Notes under the pieces: generated by a model | Told to the model about the DNA's origin: nothing | Databases searched by the model: none | Seen by the model: only the letters and a program-made list of their open reading frames with translations | Made by a program: the position numbers and the translations under genes | Source: a virus | Virus record (IMG/VR): IMGVR_UViG_3300008055_000251 | Length of the DNA stretch: 64,000 nucleotides | Direction: 5' to 3' (one strand) | Part shown: positions 3,468 to 63,231 of the stretch, piece by piece | Position numbering within the stretch: position 1 is the first letter of the stretch | Layout of the letters: each line of letters opens with the position of its first letter

Positions 3468-3692
3468 TCAGGCGTAGGAGCGCAGGAGCGACTCGGCGGC
3501 TTTGCGCTGGGCTTCATTGAATGTCGCAGCGAGCTGTACTTCACCCGCTGTTGAGACAAACTTCCAGCCTTGCTGTATGCGGTATGGATCTACGCCGACT
3601 ATGTTTTCTAGGATCATTCCATGAACACTGTCGTCGTGGCGCACAAGCACCACTGAGAATTTGCGGGTGAATTGAATGTTGTCAATCAGCAT
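3468..3692 (-). CDS. hypothetical phage protein
   Basis: 74 aa ORF in a lower-GC block. Confidence 0.55.
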   Translation of the reverse strand: MLIDNIQFTRKFSVVLVRHDDSVHGMILENIVGVDPYRIQQGWKFVSTAGEVQLAATFNEAQRKAAESLLRSYA

Positions 3693-3847
3693 GACTTGAT
3701 CTCATCAATGGTGGCGTCAGCGGGTGCATCCACACCTCTGACATGGGATGCAAAGTGATCGAGTGCATCGTCGAGATCGACGCACTCGGTGATTTCAGTC
3801 CAGCCGAAGCGGCCGGAGGGAGTAAACCAGGAGATGCGGAAAGTCAT
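3686..3847 (-). CDS. small hypothetical protein
   Basis: Manual translation MTFRISWFTPSGRFGWTEITECVDLDDALDHFASHVRGVDAPADATIDEIKSC; overlaps both neighbours. Confidence 0.55.
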   Translation of the reverse strand: MTFRISWFTPSGRFGWTEITECVDLDDALDHFASHVRGVDAPADATIDEIKSC

Positions 3848-4023
3848 TGTTGAATCTCCAAGCGATTGTGCATTGTGTTGACAACATCCAGGCAGTTAGA
3901 AATGCTGTGCTGGATGTATTCATAGTCGGGATCATTGATGATGAGCTGCTCTACGTCAAAGAGCAGCCGCCACACTTCTAGGCACTTTGTGTAGCGTTCG
4001 TCGGCTGTAGTTGGGCGCTTCAT
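3844..4023 (-). CDS. small hypothetical protein
   Basis: MKRPTTADERY...; ATG 2 nt after the upstream stop. Confidence 0.55.
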   Translation of the reverse strand: MKRPTTADERYTKCLEVWRLLFDVEQLIINDPDYEYIQHSISNCLDVVNTMHNRLEIQQ

Positions 4024-4025
4024 AA

Positions 4026-4316
4026 TCACTCCAGGTAGAGGTAGTCGTAGTCGCCGGGATACTCGGCACAGTTACATGCCCAGATCCAGAGAACACGTTT
4101 GCGGTTCTCCTCGTGATCACACAGATCAGTGCGATCCCATGCGCCGAAACCGCGTAGGTATTCGCGGAATAGCCAGGCCGGGCCGTCGAAATCAAGACGG
4201 TCGACCCATGCGGAGACGTCCTCTTGACGGTCGCCCGCGCCGGAGCAATCGCAAACGCACTCGAGAGGGAGCTGCCGCAGTGAGGCGCGGCCGTGGAACC
4301 AAGTGTTGCGGTACAT
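4026..4316 (-). CDS. hypothetical phage protein
   Basis: 96 aa ORF, Trp/Cys/Asp-rich, normal packing. Confidence 0.65.
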   Translation of the reverse strand: MYRNTWFHGRASLRQLPLECVCDCSGAGDRQEDVSAWVDRLDFDGPAWLFREYLRGFGAWDRTDLCDHEENRKRVLWIWACNCAEYPGDYDYLYLE

Positions 4317-4350
4317 GACTAGGGTGCAAGGTAAACGATTCGGGAATCAG

Positions 4351-4632
4351 TCAAACGAGCTCGCGGAGATGAGAGAAGCCAGGCACCTCGTGAGCCCACT
4401 TAGGGCTAGGAAGCATGCGGCGCAGCTCTTTGTACAGACTTACGGTGATGTCCATACGCTCGGCGTTGTAGGCGCATTCGCGCCAGATTCCAGGCACGCA
4501 AAGGTGGCCGGCGTAGCCCTCGTCCCATGCGGCAACACGGGCAGCCACAGGGAGCTCTTCATCAACTAGAACGTACAAACGACGAGGGTTGCCGTTGGTA
4601 TCGTTGCTAGCGCACAGGTGTTGAAAGTACAT
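4351..4632 (-). CDS. hypothetical phage protein
   Basis: MYFQHLCASNDTNGNPRRLYV...; start chosen at ATG 4632 downstream of the 19-bp repeat. Confidence 0.65.
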   Translation of the reverse strand: MYFQHLCASNDTNGNPRRLYVLVDEELPVAARVAAWDEGYAGHLCVPGIWRECAYNAERMDITVSLYKELRRMLPSPKWAHEVPGFSHLRELV

Positions 4633-4638
4633 GCTGAA

Positions 4639-4657
4639 ACTCACAGCGAGAGGATGA
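4639..4657 (+). repeat. 19-bp direct repeat copy 2 (ACTCACAGCGAGAGGATGA)
   Basis: Identical to 3395-3413; lies 6 nt upstream of ATG 4632. Confidence 0.85.
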
Positions 4658-5297
4658 AGGTGCAAAGCACCTCAGCCAAACAACCCCCGGACGCAGTGCG
4701 CCAGGGGGAATGTCTGGGGGAGATGTTTTGTGCGTGCTGAGCAGAGCCAAATGCTCGGTGCCACCGTGGGCACGCTGGCCACGGTTGCTAGGTGTCACCT
4801 AGCTGCAACGGGGTGTCTCGCAGAGCCCGCCAGTATTGATCGCTGTTCACCACACGTCTAAGTGCAACCGGGAGTGTGCTCAACCGCAGAGGGCACAGGG
4901 TGCCTGTCCGATTGAGGGTCCGGTGAATCGCCGCACTTAGGGCATGGATTCCGTAGATGCTTGCAGAACGTGTGCCAAGGGCCTGTTGGGCTTGCACCGG
5001 AGCAGTCGGGGGCGGCCTTGATCCCGGACCCGCACTAAGGGTCGGGGGATCGGTTCGCCCGGACTGCAGCGGCCGGCAAGGGGATTTGAACCGCGAGGTT
5101 TTTCTCACACCTTGCCTGTGACTAGCTGTGCCACAGGGGATCGGTCACACCTTAGTCGTCGAATAGCGCAGCCTCAGATCCGTCCTGCTTTCGCATCCTC
5201 CCCCGCAAGCGGGATCGCTGGAGACGTCCTGAACCGCCTCTACCGAAAGGCTGTTCCTATCAATAGCTGACACGGTGGCTGTCACCCACCGATCCAT
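4658..5297 (-). ncRNA. candidate large structured non-coding RNA
   Basis: No credible ORF over ~950 bp in an otherwise tightly packed genome; many nested perfect helices (e.g. 4858-4865/4933-4940, 4851-4857/4968-4974, 5020-5031/5039-5051, 5075-5081/5110-5116); a GAAA tetraloop and a GGTTCAAATCC T-loop on the minus strand; promoter-like motifs directly upstream. Confidence 0.55.
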
Positions 5298-5303
5298 GGC
5301 AGT

Positions 5304-5332
5304 AGCCTTGCACAGCTGCCGCCGATTGTCAA
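5304..5332 (-). promoter_or_regulatory. leftward promoter, TTGACA-N13-GTGC-AAGGCT
   Basis: -35 at 5332-5327, 17 nt spacer, -10-like AAGGCT at 5309-5304. Confidence 0.6.
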
Positions 5333-5426
5333 CCCCAGCCGTTTGGCTTAGGTTGGCGCAACGGGTCCGACGGGAGCAGTGCCCCTTAGGGGATGCTCGC
5401 AAGGCCGGATCCGCTCCGATGTGACA

Positions 5427-5455
5427 AGCATTGCACCGATGCTCGCAGCTGTCAA
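5427..5455 (-). promoter_or_regulatory. leftward promoter, TTGACA-N13-GTGC-AATGCT
   Basis: -35 at 5455-5450, 17 nt spacer, -10-like AATGCT at 5432-5427; overlapped by direct repeat CAAGCATTGC (5425-5434, 5453-5462). Confidence 0.6.
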
Positions 5456-5617
5456 GCATTGCTAGTGGGTCTCTTGGTTCTCGGTCTGAGATGGCTGCGC
5501 CGGCCCTATAGGGATAGAGTCGCAGTGAGTCTCATGCGACGTAGAGTAGGATTGTGCGTAGTACTAATGAAGTCATATTCACTGCTACTAAATAAATGTA
5601 TATATGTGTCCTAATTA

Positions 5618-5995
5618 TTACTGCGCGCTAGCCTTAGTTAAAAGTCCGTTGATGATATCGGCTGGGCGGCACTGACGGACAACACACTCGGTGTCGAGCC
5701 ATCTGCGGTTGTTAGGCGTCAAAGTAATAGATATCTTTAGCCTCTCATTCTCTCTGCGTAATTGCTCATTGCTCTTGGACTGAGCGATGCGAGCCGAGGT
5801 CGAGCGCCAGCGGTCGAGGGTCCCCGGTGCGAGGTCGCCGCGCTCGGTGGCGTTCTGCAGGCGCTGCAGGATGCTCTGTCGCGATACCCCGAAGATTTCG
5901 CCGACGTCAGCCCATTTCACGAAGCCGTGCGCTTCGTAAAGCCTTTCGCACGTCTTGATGATGTCTTCGAGTGGTGTGTACCTGGGCGAGGCCAT
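5618..5995 (-). CDS. putative transcriptional regulator (N-terminal HTH, C-terminal RHH-like)
   Basis: VKWADVGEIFGVSRQSILQRLQ helix-turn-helix; LKISITLTPNNRRWLD...RPADIINGLL ribbon-helix-helix-like; start at ATG 5995. Confidence 0.65.
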   Translation of the reverse strand: MASPRYTPLEDIIKTCERLYEAHGFVKWADVGEIFGVSRQSILQRLQNATERGDLAPGTLDRWRSTSARIAQSKSNEQLRRENERLKISITLTPNNRRWLDTECVVRQCRPADIINGLLTKASAQ

Positions 5996-6021
5996 TTCAG
6001 GGTCTCCGGCGAGCAAGCCTA

Positions 6022-6050
6022 ATGGTTGCACAGCACCGCTAAAACGTCAA
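6022..6050 (-). promoter_or_regulatory. leftward promoter, TTGACG-N13-GTGC-AACCAT
   Basis: -35 at 6050-6045, 17 nt spacer, AACCAT at 6027-6022; same architecture as the motifs at 5304 and 5427. Confidence 0.55.
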
Positions 6051-6268
6051 CCCTGCTCTTCCTCGTCAGCGCTCGGCCCGTGGTAGATCCATTCCAGCTG
6101 CTGGCGGAGATCGGCCTCGTGGCGCTCGTCATCGACGTCGTCTTCTTCCTCTGCTTCGTCCACGGGGATCTCGACCATGATCCGGCTGATCCGGGGGCTC
6201 TTCACCAGGAGCTCGAGCAGCCACTGCTCATACCAGCGGAGGCCCGTGTTGAAGTCGTCAGTCGTCAT
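6047..6268 (-). CDS. small acidic hypothetical protein
   Basis: 73 aa ORF overlapping the sigma factor stop. Confidence 0.6.
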   Translation of the reverse strand: MTTDDFNTGLRWYEQWLLELLVKSPRISRIMVEIPVDEAEEEDDVDDERHEADLRQQLEWIYHGPSADEEEQG

Positions 6269-7127
6269 GGCCTTGGCGGGCGAGCTGCGTGCGGAGTTTG
6301 CGGAGGGCGGTCTGCTGAACTTGGCCGGCGCGGGAGCGGGTGAAGCCGAGCTCCTCGGAGATCTCGCGCAGAGTGCGGCCCTCGAAGTACCGGCCTCGGA
6401 CGATGGCTTCTTCTGTGGAGTTCAGCTGGGCCAACGCGGCATTGACATCTTCGCGGGCGGCTGTGGCGAGGATGAACTCGTCGGGCTCAGCGCCGTTGGT
6501 ACCTTCCGGGTTGGCAAGGATGTCGATCAAGGGGCTGGTGCTGTCGGCGCAGACGGCGTCGAGGGAGCAGCAGACCGTGCTGGTGTGGGTTTGTAGGAGT
6601 TGGGCGATGCGCTCGGGGGTGACGTCGACGGCCTCGGCGACTTCTTGGTGCGTAGGAGGGCGGCCGGCATGTGAGGTGAATTCGTAGCTGAAACGCTGCA
6701 CCCGGGTGATCAGCTCGTGAGTATTGATGGGGAGGCGGATCGTGCGGGCGTGGGTGTGGATGGCGCGGGTGATGGCTTGGCGGATCCACCAGTAGGCATA
6801 AGTGCTTACGGCGTAGCCGCGGGTGGGGTCGAAGAGCTCGAGGCCGCGGATCAGGCCGAGGTTGCCTTCCTGGATGAGGTCGGCCATGTCGAGGCCGCGG
6901 TTCTGATAGCGCTTGGCAATGGAGATGACGAGGCGCAGGTTCGTGACCGTCATCACCTCCATGGAGCGTTTGCCGGCGCGGCGGATACCGAGAGGTGCGG
7001 CGTCGCGGCCGTCCTCGTGGTGGAGCCAGGCGTGGATGCGGCGGCAGTGGCGTAGTTGCGCCTCCTTGGAGAGGACGGGGTGCCGACCAACCTGGGTCAG
7101 ATAGTCGTGTATTTCGGATTGGGACAT
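6258..7127 (-). CDS. RNA polymerase sigma-70 family factor (group 2/RpoD-like, no region 1.1)
   Basis: Region 1.2 IHDYLTQVGRHPVLS; region 2 NLRLVISIAKRYQNRGLDMADLIQEGNLGLIRGLELFDPTRGYAVSTYAYWWIRQAITRAI; region 3 RTIRLP; region 4 HTH TLREISEELGFTRSRAGQVQQTALRKLR. Confidence 0.95.
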   Translation of the reverse strand: MSQSEIHDYLTQVGRHPVLSKEAQLRHCRRIHAWLHHEDGRDAAPLGIRRAGKRSMEVMTVTNLRLVISIAKRYQNRGLDMADLIQEGNLGLIRGLELFDPTRGYAVSTYAYWWIRQAITRAIHTHARTIRLPINTHELITRVQRFSYEFTSHAGRPPTHQEVAEAVDVTPERIAQLLQTHTSTVCCSLDAVCADSTSPLIDILANPEGTNGAEPDEFILATAAREDVNAALAQLNSTEEAIVRGRYFEGRTLREISEELGFTRSRAGQVQQTALRKLRTQLARQGHDD

Positions 7128-8072: not shown

Positions 8073-8795
8073 TCAAGGTGCAAGACGAGCTTTATGAAGG
8101 CGCGAAGCGCCGTACCACCCGGCGATCTCGGGGGCCCACGCTTCGAGGTGGGGCCACATCAGATCGCATAGCGCTTGGATCTCAAGTTGGGCGTCGCGCT
8201 TCGCGCGCAGATCCATGAAATGCAGCAGGCTGCGCAGGTTGAAAGACACCACGAAGTCCTGGCGAATTGCGTAGGGGATGATGTCCCTGGCGTGTTCTTC
8301 GCTGAAGCCGTCCTCGAGCGCGAGCTTGTAGCGGCCAGCAGAGTCGATGCAGATGATGCGGTGGATCATCCGCTGGTCTTCGGTGTACTCGTACTTCTTG
8401 CCTTGGCGGTCTCGGTAGGTGCCGACCGGGCGGAGGTAGAAGACTTCTTCGACGTCGCGCTCACCAGTGCAGACATCAAGAATGCGCTTGCCGGTGTAGC
8501 GGCCGGATTGCACATCGAATGAAACGCCCACCCGGTGGGTGCGGGCTTGTTGCATCACCGAGTGAGGGAAGCCGCCGACGTTGAAGGTGATGGCCGGGTG
8601 CTCGAGGGGTCCGTAGTGACCGCGCTCCCCGGCGAGTAGGTGTTTGATGATGAGGGCGCCGGCCTCGGATTCGCTCGGGGGCTCCTCGTCAAAGACGAAG
8701 TTCTCGCTGTAGTCCTGGTGCATTGCCCACCAGCAAAGCGTCTGAGGGTGTTCGGTTCTATTTAGAACCTCAACGCGGAAGTAAGGATCTTTCAC
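8073..8795 (-). CDS. thyX: FAD-dependent thymidylate synthase ThyX
   Basis: GHYGPLEH, QQARTHRVGVSFDVQSGRY (RHRxxSxxxxSxR-type motif, cyanobacterial variant), NLRSLLHFMDLR; GTG start at 8795 overlaps the upstream stop. Confidence 0.95.
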   Translation of the reverse strand: MKDPYFRVEVLNRTEHPQTLCWWAMHQDYSENFVFDEEPPSESEAGALIIKHLLAGERGHYGPLEHPAITFNVGGFPHSVMQQARTHRVGVSFDVQSGRYTGKRILDVCTGERDVEEVFYLRPVGTYRDRQGKKYEYTEDQRMIHRIICIDSAGRYKLALEDGFSEEHARDIIPYAIRQDFVVSFNLRSLLHFMDLRAKRDAQLEIQALCDLMWPHLEAWAPEIAGWYGASRLHKARLAP

Positions 8796-8947
8796 TTCTG
8801 CTCTCCTCGGCGCCAGTAGATATTGAGATTCACCAGGCAGCCAAGTGCGAGGAGCTTCCACGCGCCTTGAGCAAAGATCGCCACCACGCAATACGCGATG
8901 AGCGTGAGGATATTCTCGATGAACTGATGGCGGTTGATGTTGCTCAT
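8792..8947 (-). CDS. small membrane protein
   Basis: Manual translation MSNINRHQFIENILTLIAYCVVAIFAQGAWKLLALGCLVNLNIYWRRGEQK; GTGA overlap with thyX. Confidence 0.55.
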   Translation of the reverse strand: MSNINRHQFIENILTLIAYCVVAIFAQGAWKLLALGCLVNLNIYWRRGEQK

Positions 8948-62866: not shown

Positions 62867-63187
62867 ATGTTGGACCATCACATCGATGGGTCCCTCCTCT
62901 GCTCGAAACGCTTTGCGAAGTTGCGATTCCGCCAGGGCATCTTGAGCTCGTGGGGTGGATGCTGCGCGTACTGCGGGGCGCCAGCGGGCACGCTCGATCA
63001 CGTCAAGGCGAAGCGGCGGGGCGGGCCGACGGTGCAGCGCAACTTGGTGGCGGCCTGCGCGACGTGCAACCGTGCGAAGGGTTCAGAGGAGTGGCTCGTG
63101 TGGTTCCGGGCTCAGTGCTTCTGGGAAGAGCACCGGGAAGACGCGATTTACGAATGGATGGGGGCTGCGAGGATCGAACTCGCCTGA
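62867..63187 (+). CDS. HNH endonuclease
   Basis: CAYCG...TLDHVKAKRRGG...NLVAACATCNRAKG. Confidence 0.9.
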   Translation: MLDHHIDGSLLCSKRFAKLRFRQGILSSWGGCCAYCGAPAGTLDHVKAKRRGGPTVQRNLVAACATCNRAKGSEEWLVWFRAQCFWEEHREDAIYEWMGAARIELA

Positions 63188-63231
63188 GGCCGATTATGAG
63201 TCGGCTGCTCTCACCAGATAGCTAAGCCCCC
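63159..63231 (-). tRNA. tRNA with CAT anticodon (non-initiator: Ile2 or elongator Met)
   Basis: GGGGGCT/AGCCCCC acceptor, D arm with TGG, anticodon arm GCCGA-CTCATAA-TCGGC, T arm GCGAG-TTCGATC-CTCGC, discriminator A; no encoded CCA. Confidence 0.9.

Follow-up and report, generated by a model that had tools for sequence, protein, structure and literature searches.

In lambdoid phages, the early genes are preceded by terminators that are overcome by RNA elements located just downstream of the promoter, either the ~70-nt put RNA, which works unaided, or the nut site together with the N protein (PMC9378689). The put RNA of phage HK022 consists of two stem–loops and lies just downstream of the early promoter (PMC9378689). 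The locus analyzed here, part of a 64,000-nt stretch of viral DNA (IMG/VR record IMGVR_UViG_3300008055_000251, hereafter the window), has a similar order, with a promoter, a folded RNA close to it, an untranslated stretch and a terminator-like hairpin before the genes; by analogy, the early and late leaders of the lambdoid phages (lambda N/nut, Q/qut-tR′ and HK022 put) appear to offer the closest known logic. The 62-nt hairpin that follows the first promoter is similar to the put RNA in position and size, but its architecture is that of one multi-tier hairpin, not two stem–loops. Unlike the lambdoid leaders, the leader in the window is far longer, has no sequence or model match to them and is accompanied by no recognised N- or Q-like protein.

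A further comparison can be made with T4-type phages, whose exchangeable cassettes are bordered by promoter–stem–loop (PeSL) repeats. As with PeSL, conserved borders made of promoters and hairpins mark the place where close relatives swap unrelated segments. In contrast to PeSL, the piece that is swapped has no coding function, the cassette usually occurs once per genome and there is covariation at the RNA level. Rfam and the papers searched contained no description of the leader, of its conserved terminal cassette (module C) or of the structured core that sister phages carry in its middle.

The window is a phage genome with a G+C content of ~60%, in which a sigma-70 family gene and thyX stand among many genes of unknown function, and every gene around a 984-nt gap lies on the minus strand (Table 1). 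Its PolA is 28% identical to that of Pseudanabaena phages, its PolA and phrog_2554 proteins have distant relatives only, and there was no close cultured relative; a blastn search of GenBank phages with the 1-kb region gave no match. For comparison, we collected ~110 related loci (given L-numbers) through their flanking proteins and conserved DNA motifs.

The 984-nt gap is non-coding, in accordance with the initial annotation, which had seen no credible open reading frame in the 640 nt at 4658–5297 and proposed a large ornate RNA there. Two minus-strand frames of ~105 codons are open in the gap (106 aa at 4788–5108 and 104 aa at 5145–5459), and these would be the candidates if the stretch encoded one or more small proteins. 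We regard this alternative as extremely unlikely: neither frame has a match in Pfam or PHROG or a homologue among 5.8 billion protein clusters, neither has a third-codon-position bias against the nearest diverged relative, L001 (8/4/4), gene callers placed no gene in the gap of any related contig, and the reading frame is lost where the middle of the gap is replaced. ARAGORN detected a single tRNA in the window, tRNA-Met at 63159–63231, and no tRNA or tmRNA fold in the gap.

Judged by sequence comparison, the gap is composed of three minus-strand modules: A (5617–5264), B (5263 to ~4803) and C (4802–4633). Their features are collected in Table 1.

Table 1. Features of the leader and its surroundings; positions are those of the window unless a related locus is named
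Feature	Position	Strand	Description
thyX	8073–8891	minus	
Sigma-70 family gene	6258–7127	minus	
125-aa gene	5618–5995	minus	just upstream of P1 and P2
Gene-free gap, 984 nt	4633–5617		bounded by the 125-aa and 93-aa genes
P1, promoter-like site	5427–5455	minus	TTGACA, 17-nt spacer ending GTGC, AATGCT (extended −10-like)
P1-leader hairpin	5357–5418	minus	~62 nt, four tiers, ~9 nt after the predicted P1 start
P2, promoter-like site	5304–5332	minus	follows P1 at a distance of 123 nt; start predicted near 5297
P2-proximal hairpin	5273–5291	minus	6-bp stem, constant GUGACAG loop
Core B	4803–5263	minus	orphan, swappable middle of the leader; bears most listed helices
Listed helices	4858–4865/4933–4940; 4851–4857/4968–4974; inner 4880–4887/4910–4917		
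Listed helices	5020–5051; 5117–5149; 4788–4802; 4658–4672		
GAAA loop	near 5190		presence confirmed
tRNA-Thr(UGU)-like stretch, 21 nt	5072–5092	minus	identical to the T-loop-to-acceptor 3′ end in L083 (9258–9333)
Module C	4633–4802	minus	~170-nt structured 5′-UTR cassette abutting the start codon
Hairpin a	4788–4802	minus	5-bp stem, constant UGACA loop
Hairpin b	4784–4764	minus	stem versions GUGG/CCAC, GUUG/CAAC, GUCA/UGAC, GUCG/CGAC
Long-range helix GCGUGC/GCACGC	4775–4770 with 4737–4732	minus	98% paired
Hairpin c	4762–4740	minus	100% paired; G-C/G-U and A-U/G-U swaps
HP1	4668–4725	minus	long GC-rich hairpin with U-rich 3′ flank, terminator-like
HP2	4657–4673	minus	96.6% paired
HP3	4633–4647	minus	4-bp hairpin ending at the start codon
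First operon gene, 93 aa	4351–4632	minus	no known family
Sister structured domain	L105:2515–2762, L037:6977–7254, L018:2599–2815 and others		alignments A9, A10

Module A has homologues of 76–88% identity in L001, L012 and L018 and contains the two promoter motifs that the initial annotation had placed upstream of the stretch. Both P1 and P2 conform to sigma-70-type sites in having a −35 element, a 17-nt spacer and a −10 element with A2 and T6, although their −10 elements, AAGGCT or AATGCT preceded by TGC, are atypical. The motif that describes them (TTGACA, a 17-nt spacer ending in GTGC, NANNNT) occurs three times in the window, where 0.01 occurrences would be expected. The hexamers of P1 are kept in eight distinct relatives while its spacers change freely; at P2 the −35 and the TGC-NANNNT are kept, the spacer varies and the −10 reads AAGGCT, CATCAT or CACACT, and in one lineage of these relatives the −10 letters also change. 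Hexamers that are kept while spacers change fit promoter evolution, and the conservation at P1 and P2 is therefore promoter-like; their transcription starts are predictions. Several other elements were observed in this part of the locus. The ~60 nt right after the 125-aa gene (5560–5617) are AT-rich, and the sole classical match in a promoter scan (TTAACT, 16 nt, AATAAT) lies at 5641–5614 on the minus strand. Upstream of P1 there is a perfect 10-bp palindrome, CCCTATAGGG (5504–5513), which is changed symmetrically to CTCTATAGAG in L001 and could serve as an operator or form a small hairpin; a second palindrome, TGACA-N7-TGTCA, follows P2. The 125-aa gene has a promoter of the same class of its own at 6022–6050 on the minus strand (TTGACG, 17 nt, TGC, AACCAT), and its product has a weak TetR-type HTH match (TtgR, E 8e-4), making it a candidate regulator of the leader promoters.

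A hairpin lies close behind each promoter. The P1-leader hairpin adopts the same minimum-energy shape in two families with unlike stem sequences (the window, L018 and L036 in one; L052, L053, L057 and L073 in the other), with folding z-scores of −1.4 to −3.5; single-sequence folds were used for this judgement because alignment across the families misaligned the stems. In the P2-proximal hairpin, two stem pairs change on both sides, being U-A/G-C in the window and L001, G-C/U-G in L012 and C-G/C-G in L018.

At the other end of the gap, cassette C occurs in every related locus with 82–99% identity and in more than 60 phage contigs (among them L011–L018 and L035–L082); 48 IMG/VR contigs were retrieved with a motif from the cassette itself. 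It stands at a fixed distance from the ATG, behind which there are at least eight different first genes, as told from their N-termini. Neither the window's copy nor those of five related loci matched any family in Rfam 15. The upstream part of the cassette holds hairpins a, b and c and a long-range helix. Hairpin a has a constant loop on two kinds of stem, CUAGG/CCUAG (the window, L015 and L047) and GGGG/CCCC (L001, L011 and L012). Hairpin b has four stem versions, and in the long-range helix C-G/U-A swaps occur at two pairs (12 cells). Hairpin b, the long-range helix and hairpin c (4732–4784) possibly form a pseudoknot.

The downstream part holds HP1, HP2 and HP3, which were compared across 38 distinct copies. 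Overall, 98–99% of their pairs are formed, whereas slid controls are ~45% paired, and the covariation score of the three hairpins was reached by none of 500 shuffles. HP1 is 99.9% paired with compensatory changes at three pairs, but about half of it (part of the 3′ half) was fixed by the search pattern, such that its invariance is partly by construction; for this reason, together with its near invariance, covariation in HP1 rests on the three outer pairs. The stem has 10 pairs and one mismatch, closed by the loop ACU and followed by UUGUUUGG, and the 50-nt stretch of its inner and middle stems folds at −23.5 kcal/mol (z = −4.0). The U-rich tract after it reads UUGUUU in the window and UCUUUUGG (UCUUUU) in 29 of the 38 copies. 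A simple consensus terminator scan did not list HP1, which we assume is owing to its U-C mismatch. In HP2, G-C and G-U alternate at two pairs (22/16 and 20/18 copies), which is possible in minus-strand RNA only, and the RNA of the cassette is therefore read from the minus strand. The 5′ arm of HP2, GAGGUG, has two alternative partners: an invariant CAUCUC upstream, with which it extends HP1 by an outer stem, and the downstream arm of HP2 itself. HP3 changes from GCUG/CAGC to GCAG/CUGC in three copies (alignment A4). No conserved −10 element was seen between HP1 and the ATG.

Taken with the hairpins after P1 and P2, these substitutions show that the structures at both ends of the leader exist at the RNA level and lie on the minus strand. 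In this respect the initial annotation is supported, as there is real and conserved RNA structure at the ends of the stretch. Some relatives carry tandem copies of the cassette (L015:1827–2533, L036:3395–3619, L012:2773–3000). In L015, the sequence between the copies starts with ATG and resembles an inserted gene, while the second copy in L012 comes from a 61-nt insertion between direct repeats of GCACAAACCATCTC. Among species-representative genomes, the sole match to the cassette motif was in L084, a 3.4-kb contig in a Myxococcota-labelled metagenome-assembled genome that is probably mis-binned phage DNA.

The middle of the leader is different. All the helices listed in the initial annotation are present when the sequence is re-read, and the inner helix at 4880–4887/4910–4917 is complete on the minus strand only, because it needs a G-U pair. 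In relatives, only the terminal pair of helices (4658–4672 and 4788–4802) is conserved; the others are not. We compared folding energies with those of dinucleotide shuffles (60 for the core). On the minus strand, the whole gap has a z-score of −6.0 (−2.1 on the plus strand) and the interval 4677–5297 one of −4.2, whereas the central 464 nt (4800–5263), where most of the listed helices lie, have z = −1.2 (minus strand) and −0.4 (plus strand). The 200-nt segment with the main nested helices (4801–5000) gives +0.8/+1.8, three coding controls give +1.05, +0.25 and −0.83, and module C alone gives about −2.6 to −3.1. Since the core is near chance while the whole interval is strongly stabilized, the excess stability stems from outside the core. 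The difference in z between the strands arises mostly because the shuffled plus strand gains a G-U bonus, and it is not by itself proof of the RNA strand. The core of the window has no folding excess, and the expectation of stability beyond dinucleotide shuffles is borne out for the interval as a whole and fails for the core. The density of helices, which had been called unusual, is no greater than chance where most of them lie. On present evidence, the ornate look of the core is a chance product of a sequence with 63% G+C. Helices that look dense to the eye in DNA of such composition are no evidence of an ornate RNA, and here the signal is in the flanks.

Nor does the core have relatives of its own. 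Searches of the ~110 related loci, IMG/VR and GenBank phages found no homologue beyond near-identical copies, a six-frame tblastn search with the core, covering all loci and the remainder of the window, gave matches at the shared edges only, and of two core 20–25-mers scanned against IMG/VR, one matched only a tRNA-Thr gene and the other nothing. The core is identical in L095, L096, L100, L102 and L104, with 0 changes in 464 nt, while L085–L094, L097 and L099 have an unrelated core of 438 nt in its place. The breakpoints are sharp, at 5264|5263 and 4788|4787, and contigs with either core type encode an identical or near-identical 125-aa neighbour and have flanks 94–98% identical to the window. 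The alignments show that the core has been replaced between close relatives. Because its copies are invariant, they hold no variation in which covariation could be tested. The conserved ornate fold that had been proposed for this dense middle finds no support, as the near-identical copies, the energies close to those of shuffles and the unrelated sequence in sisters all argue against it. The tRNA-Thr gene that the core 20–25-mer matched is on an unrelated viral contig, L083, and its 3′ end is identical to the core over 21 nt; ARAGORN found no cloverleaf at 5072–5092, and there is no matching 5′ half. The identity could be chance, the relic of an att core or a tRNA mimic.

The uniformity of the core extends beyond it. 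Across the gap, the five contigs that share the window-type core have 1–4 changes per 985 nt, against 1.2–5.7% in the flanking genes. The near-invariant block is 1.24 kb long (~4618–5857); the five contigs, which come from different samples and differ by 1–6% in their flanking genes, have 0–4 changes in it, and it spans the gap and the 3′ two-thirds (240 nt) of the 125-aa gene. Its lower end, ~4618, coincides with the start of the 93-aa gene, where differences turn dense. Between the window and contigs that carry the other core, modules A and C have diverged as much as the genes. In public DNA runs, a fraction of 0.77–0.97 of the gap 31-mers was present, versus 0.55–0.64 for the adjacent coding kilobase. 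Purifying selection on the gap was considered as the source of the low divergence and rejected, as the block includes 240 nt of coding sequence and stops exactly at the next gene. Because the block also covers coding sequence, recent recombinational spread explains it better, and the pattern has the signature of a young allele spread via recombination. Alternatively, the invariance of the core across backgrounds could signal importance.

The 438-nt core is the commoner type in the clade, and here a structured RNA does occur in the middle of the leader. The 3′ half of this sister core is a structured domain of 150–280 nt, closed by a long helix and bearing expansion hairpins that vary, in which 8–11 pairs have compensatory changes and almost no pairs are broken. 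By eye, one of its hairpins keeps a GGGA loop on different stems in L001 and L012. When the relatives' whole leader was analyzed with RNAalifold, the covariation term was near zero or positive and a clear signal appeared only in the 3′ half of the core. We built a covariance model, R1, from the structured core of 11 relatives and searched window positions 3500–7000 with filters off; the best hit had 6.9 bits (E 0.08) and lay inside the sigma gene, with nothing in the core. The window core is therefore an orphan replacement of similar length and not the relatives' RNA domain. The two cores occupy the same slot between modules A and C and are alike in length (461–476 nt and 438–479 nt), but the compensatory pairs were seen in the sisters' core, and that of the window does not match R1.

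Contigs from the RNA libraries of three studies lie on 4730–4991 (identical), 4944–5183 and 5033–5224, covering 4730–5224; they could be DNA carry-over, such that only their presence in these libraries follows. The RNA runs were picked by words from the gap, and their sequences were all assembled contigs. That three RNA runs had no contig on 3900–4700 or 5300–6300 is not counted as evidence. The contigs end near 4730–4753 and 5224–5271, at the borders of conserved modules where the assembly graphs branch and where a DNA run breaks too, so the ends are assembly breaks and uninformative on the ends of the RNA.

GOLLD and ROOL are large ornate RNAs (PMC12286853), and the initial annotation had inferred the stretch to be an RNA of that kind or of a new class. 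In accordance with such a reading, the region is several hundred nucleotides long, non-coding and carried by a phage from lake and estuary metagenomes. At the Rfam gathering threshold, however, the only match in the window was the tRNA at 63159–63231; with E up to 10, positions 4300–6100 returned noise only, the best hit having 21 bits against a 37-bit cut-off, and five related loci gave no match. Absence of any covariance-model match even at E = 10 means that the stretch is not a GOLLD or ROOL RNA. It is also unlike them in its properties: GOLLD and ROOL are judged by a fold conserved with covariation across diverged homologues and by stability above composition-matched shuffles, while the core has near-identical copies only and no folding excess, and the region, instead of being placed among tRNA genes, is joined directly to a start codon.

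The evidence favours the alternative raised in the initial annotation, namely that the operon has a long regulatory leader here, through the cassette glued to the start codon, the promoters and the minus-strand covariation. With somewhat better than even confidence, we read the 640 nt as the body of a long, modular, untranslated operon leader with a terminator-like, attenuator-type cassette at its end. Minus-strand transcription would begin at the tandem sigma-70-type promoters P1 and P2 and run into the operon that starts at 4632, giving a leader of ~665 nt from P2 or ~790 nt from P1. The nascent RNA would fold into the promoter-proximal hairpins, which may serve as sites for a factor or for the polymerase itself, pass through the exchangeable core and then meet cassette C, where HP1 and its alternative pairing lie 36–93 nt before the start codon. 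The cassette would act as an attenuator that gates transcription, and perhaps translation, into the operon, and the two partners of the GAGGUG arm may provide a switch between HP1 and HP2 pairing. We infer the transcription starts, termination at HP1 and the regulatory role.

Other readings account for part of these data. We consider it unlikely that the stretch is a discrete trans-acting RNA of ~620 nt, running from P2 to an HP1 terminator with a lineage-specific core, used for example in host takeover or anti-defence and possibly bearing a tRNA-like 3′ fragment. A promoter and a terminator-like hairpin do bracket the stretch, but, as would be expected of a leader, a start codon always adjoins the cassette directly. 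The core carries the RNA-library contigs and the 21 nt identical to the tRNA-Thr 3′ end, and relatives have a covariation-supported domain in the same place; yet the core itself folds no better than shuffles and has no homologue or variation that would show constraint. The allele is unchanged across backgrounds diverged by 1–6%, and here the 240 nt of neighbouring gene in the invariant block point to recent recombination rather than selection. A bolder version, which we see as a long shot, is that the whole 1-kb block would be a trans-acting RNA gene with an exchangeable, lineage-specific middle, whose alleles sweep by recombination at conserved ends, for example as an anti-defence decoy or sponge, perhaps with a tRNA-like piece; it is drawn from the near invariance of the 1.24-kb block in 1–6% diverged backgrounds and from the covarying domain that relatives hold in the same slot.

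It is quite improbable that the region works mainly at the DNA level, as a control and recombination region in which promoters and operators stand by a small HTH regulator gene, cassettes are exchanged at conserved border sequences and the core is a functionless spacer. The shared sharp breakpoints with at least eight upstream sequence types, the palindromes CCCTATAGGG (with its symmetric change in L001) and TGACA-N7-TGTCA, and the weak HTH match of the adjoining 125-aa protein would all fit; the G-C/G-U swaps and pairing-preserving stem changes are, however, strand-specific RNA features, and a DNA-level role is in any case compatible with the leader model for whatever RNA is transcribed. Very unlikely in our estimate is a mimic of an rRNA operon, in which tandem promoters are followed by the host's boxA antitermination signal: the promoters, 123 nt apart and followed by hairpins, have the expected order, but the best boxA matches in the leader and five relatives had 4–6 mismatches of 12–13 to three consensus sequences (E. 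coli, Bacillus-type and cyanobacterial spacer), from which that of the host may differ.

On present evidence, the leader would belong with the known phage operon leaders under cis-acting RNA control, and the middle that drew attention to the locus would be ordinary sequence. Cassette C, with its conserved position and covarying stems, may well be a new cis-regulatory RNA motif of attenuator or riboswitch type, probably pseudoknotted. The sharp exchange of a non-coding core between near-identical genomes provides a natural case of modular exchange at RNA-structured borders. If the leader reading holds, uncultured freshwater and estuarine phages would control an operon by means of a long modular leader.
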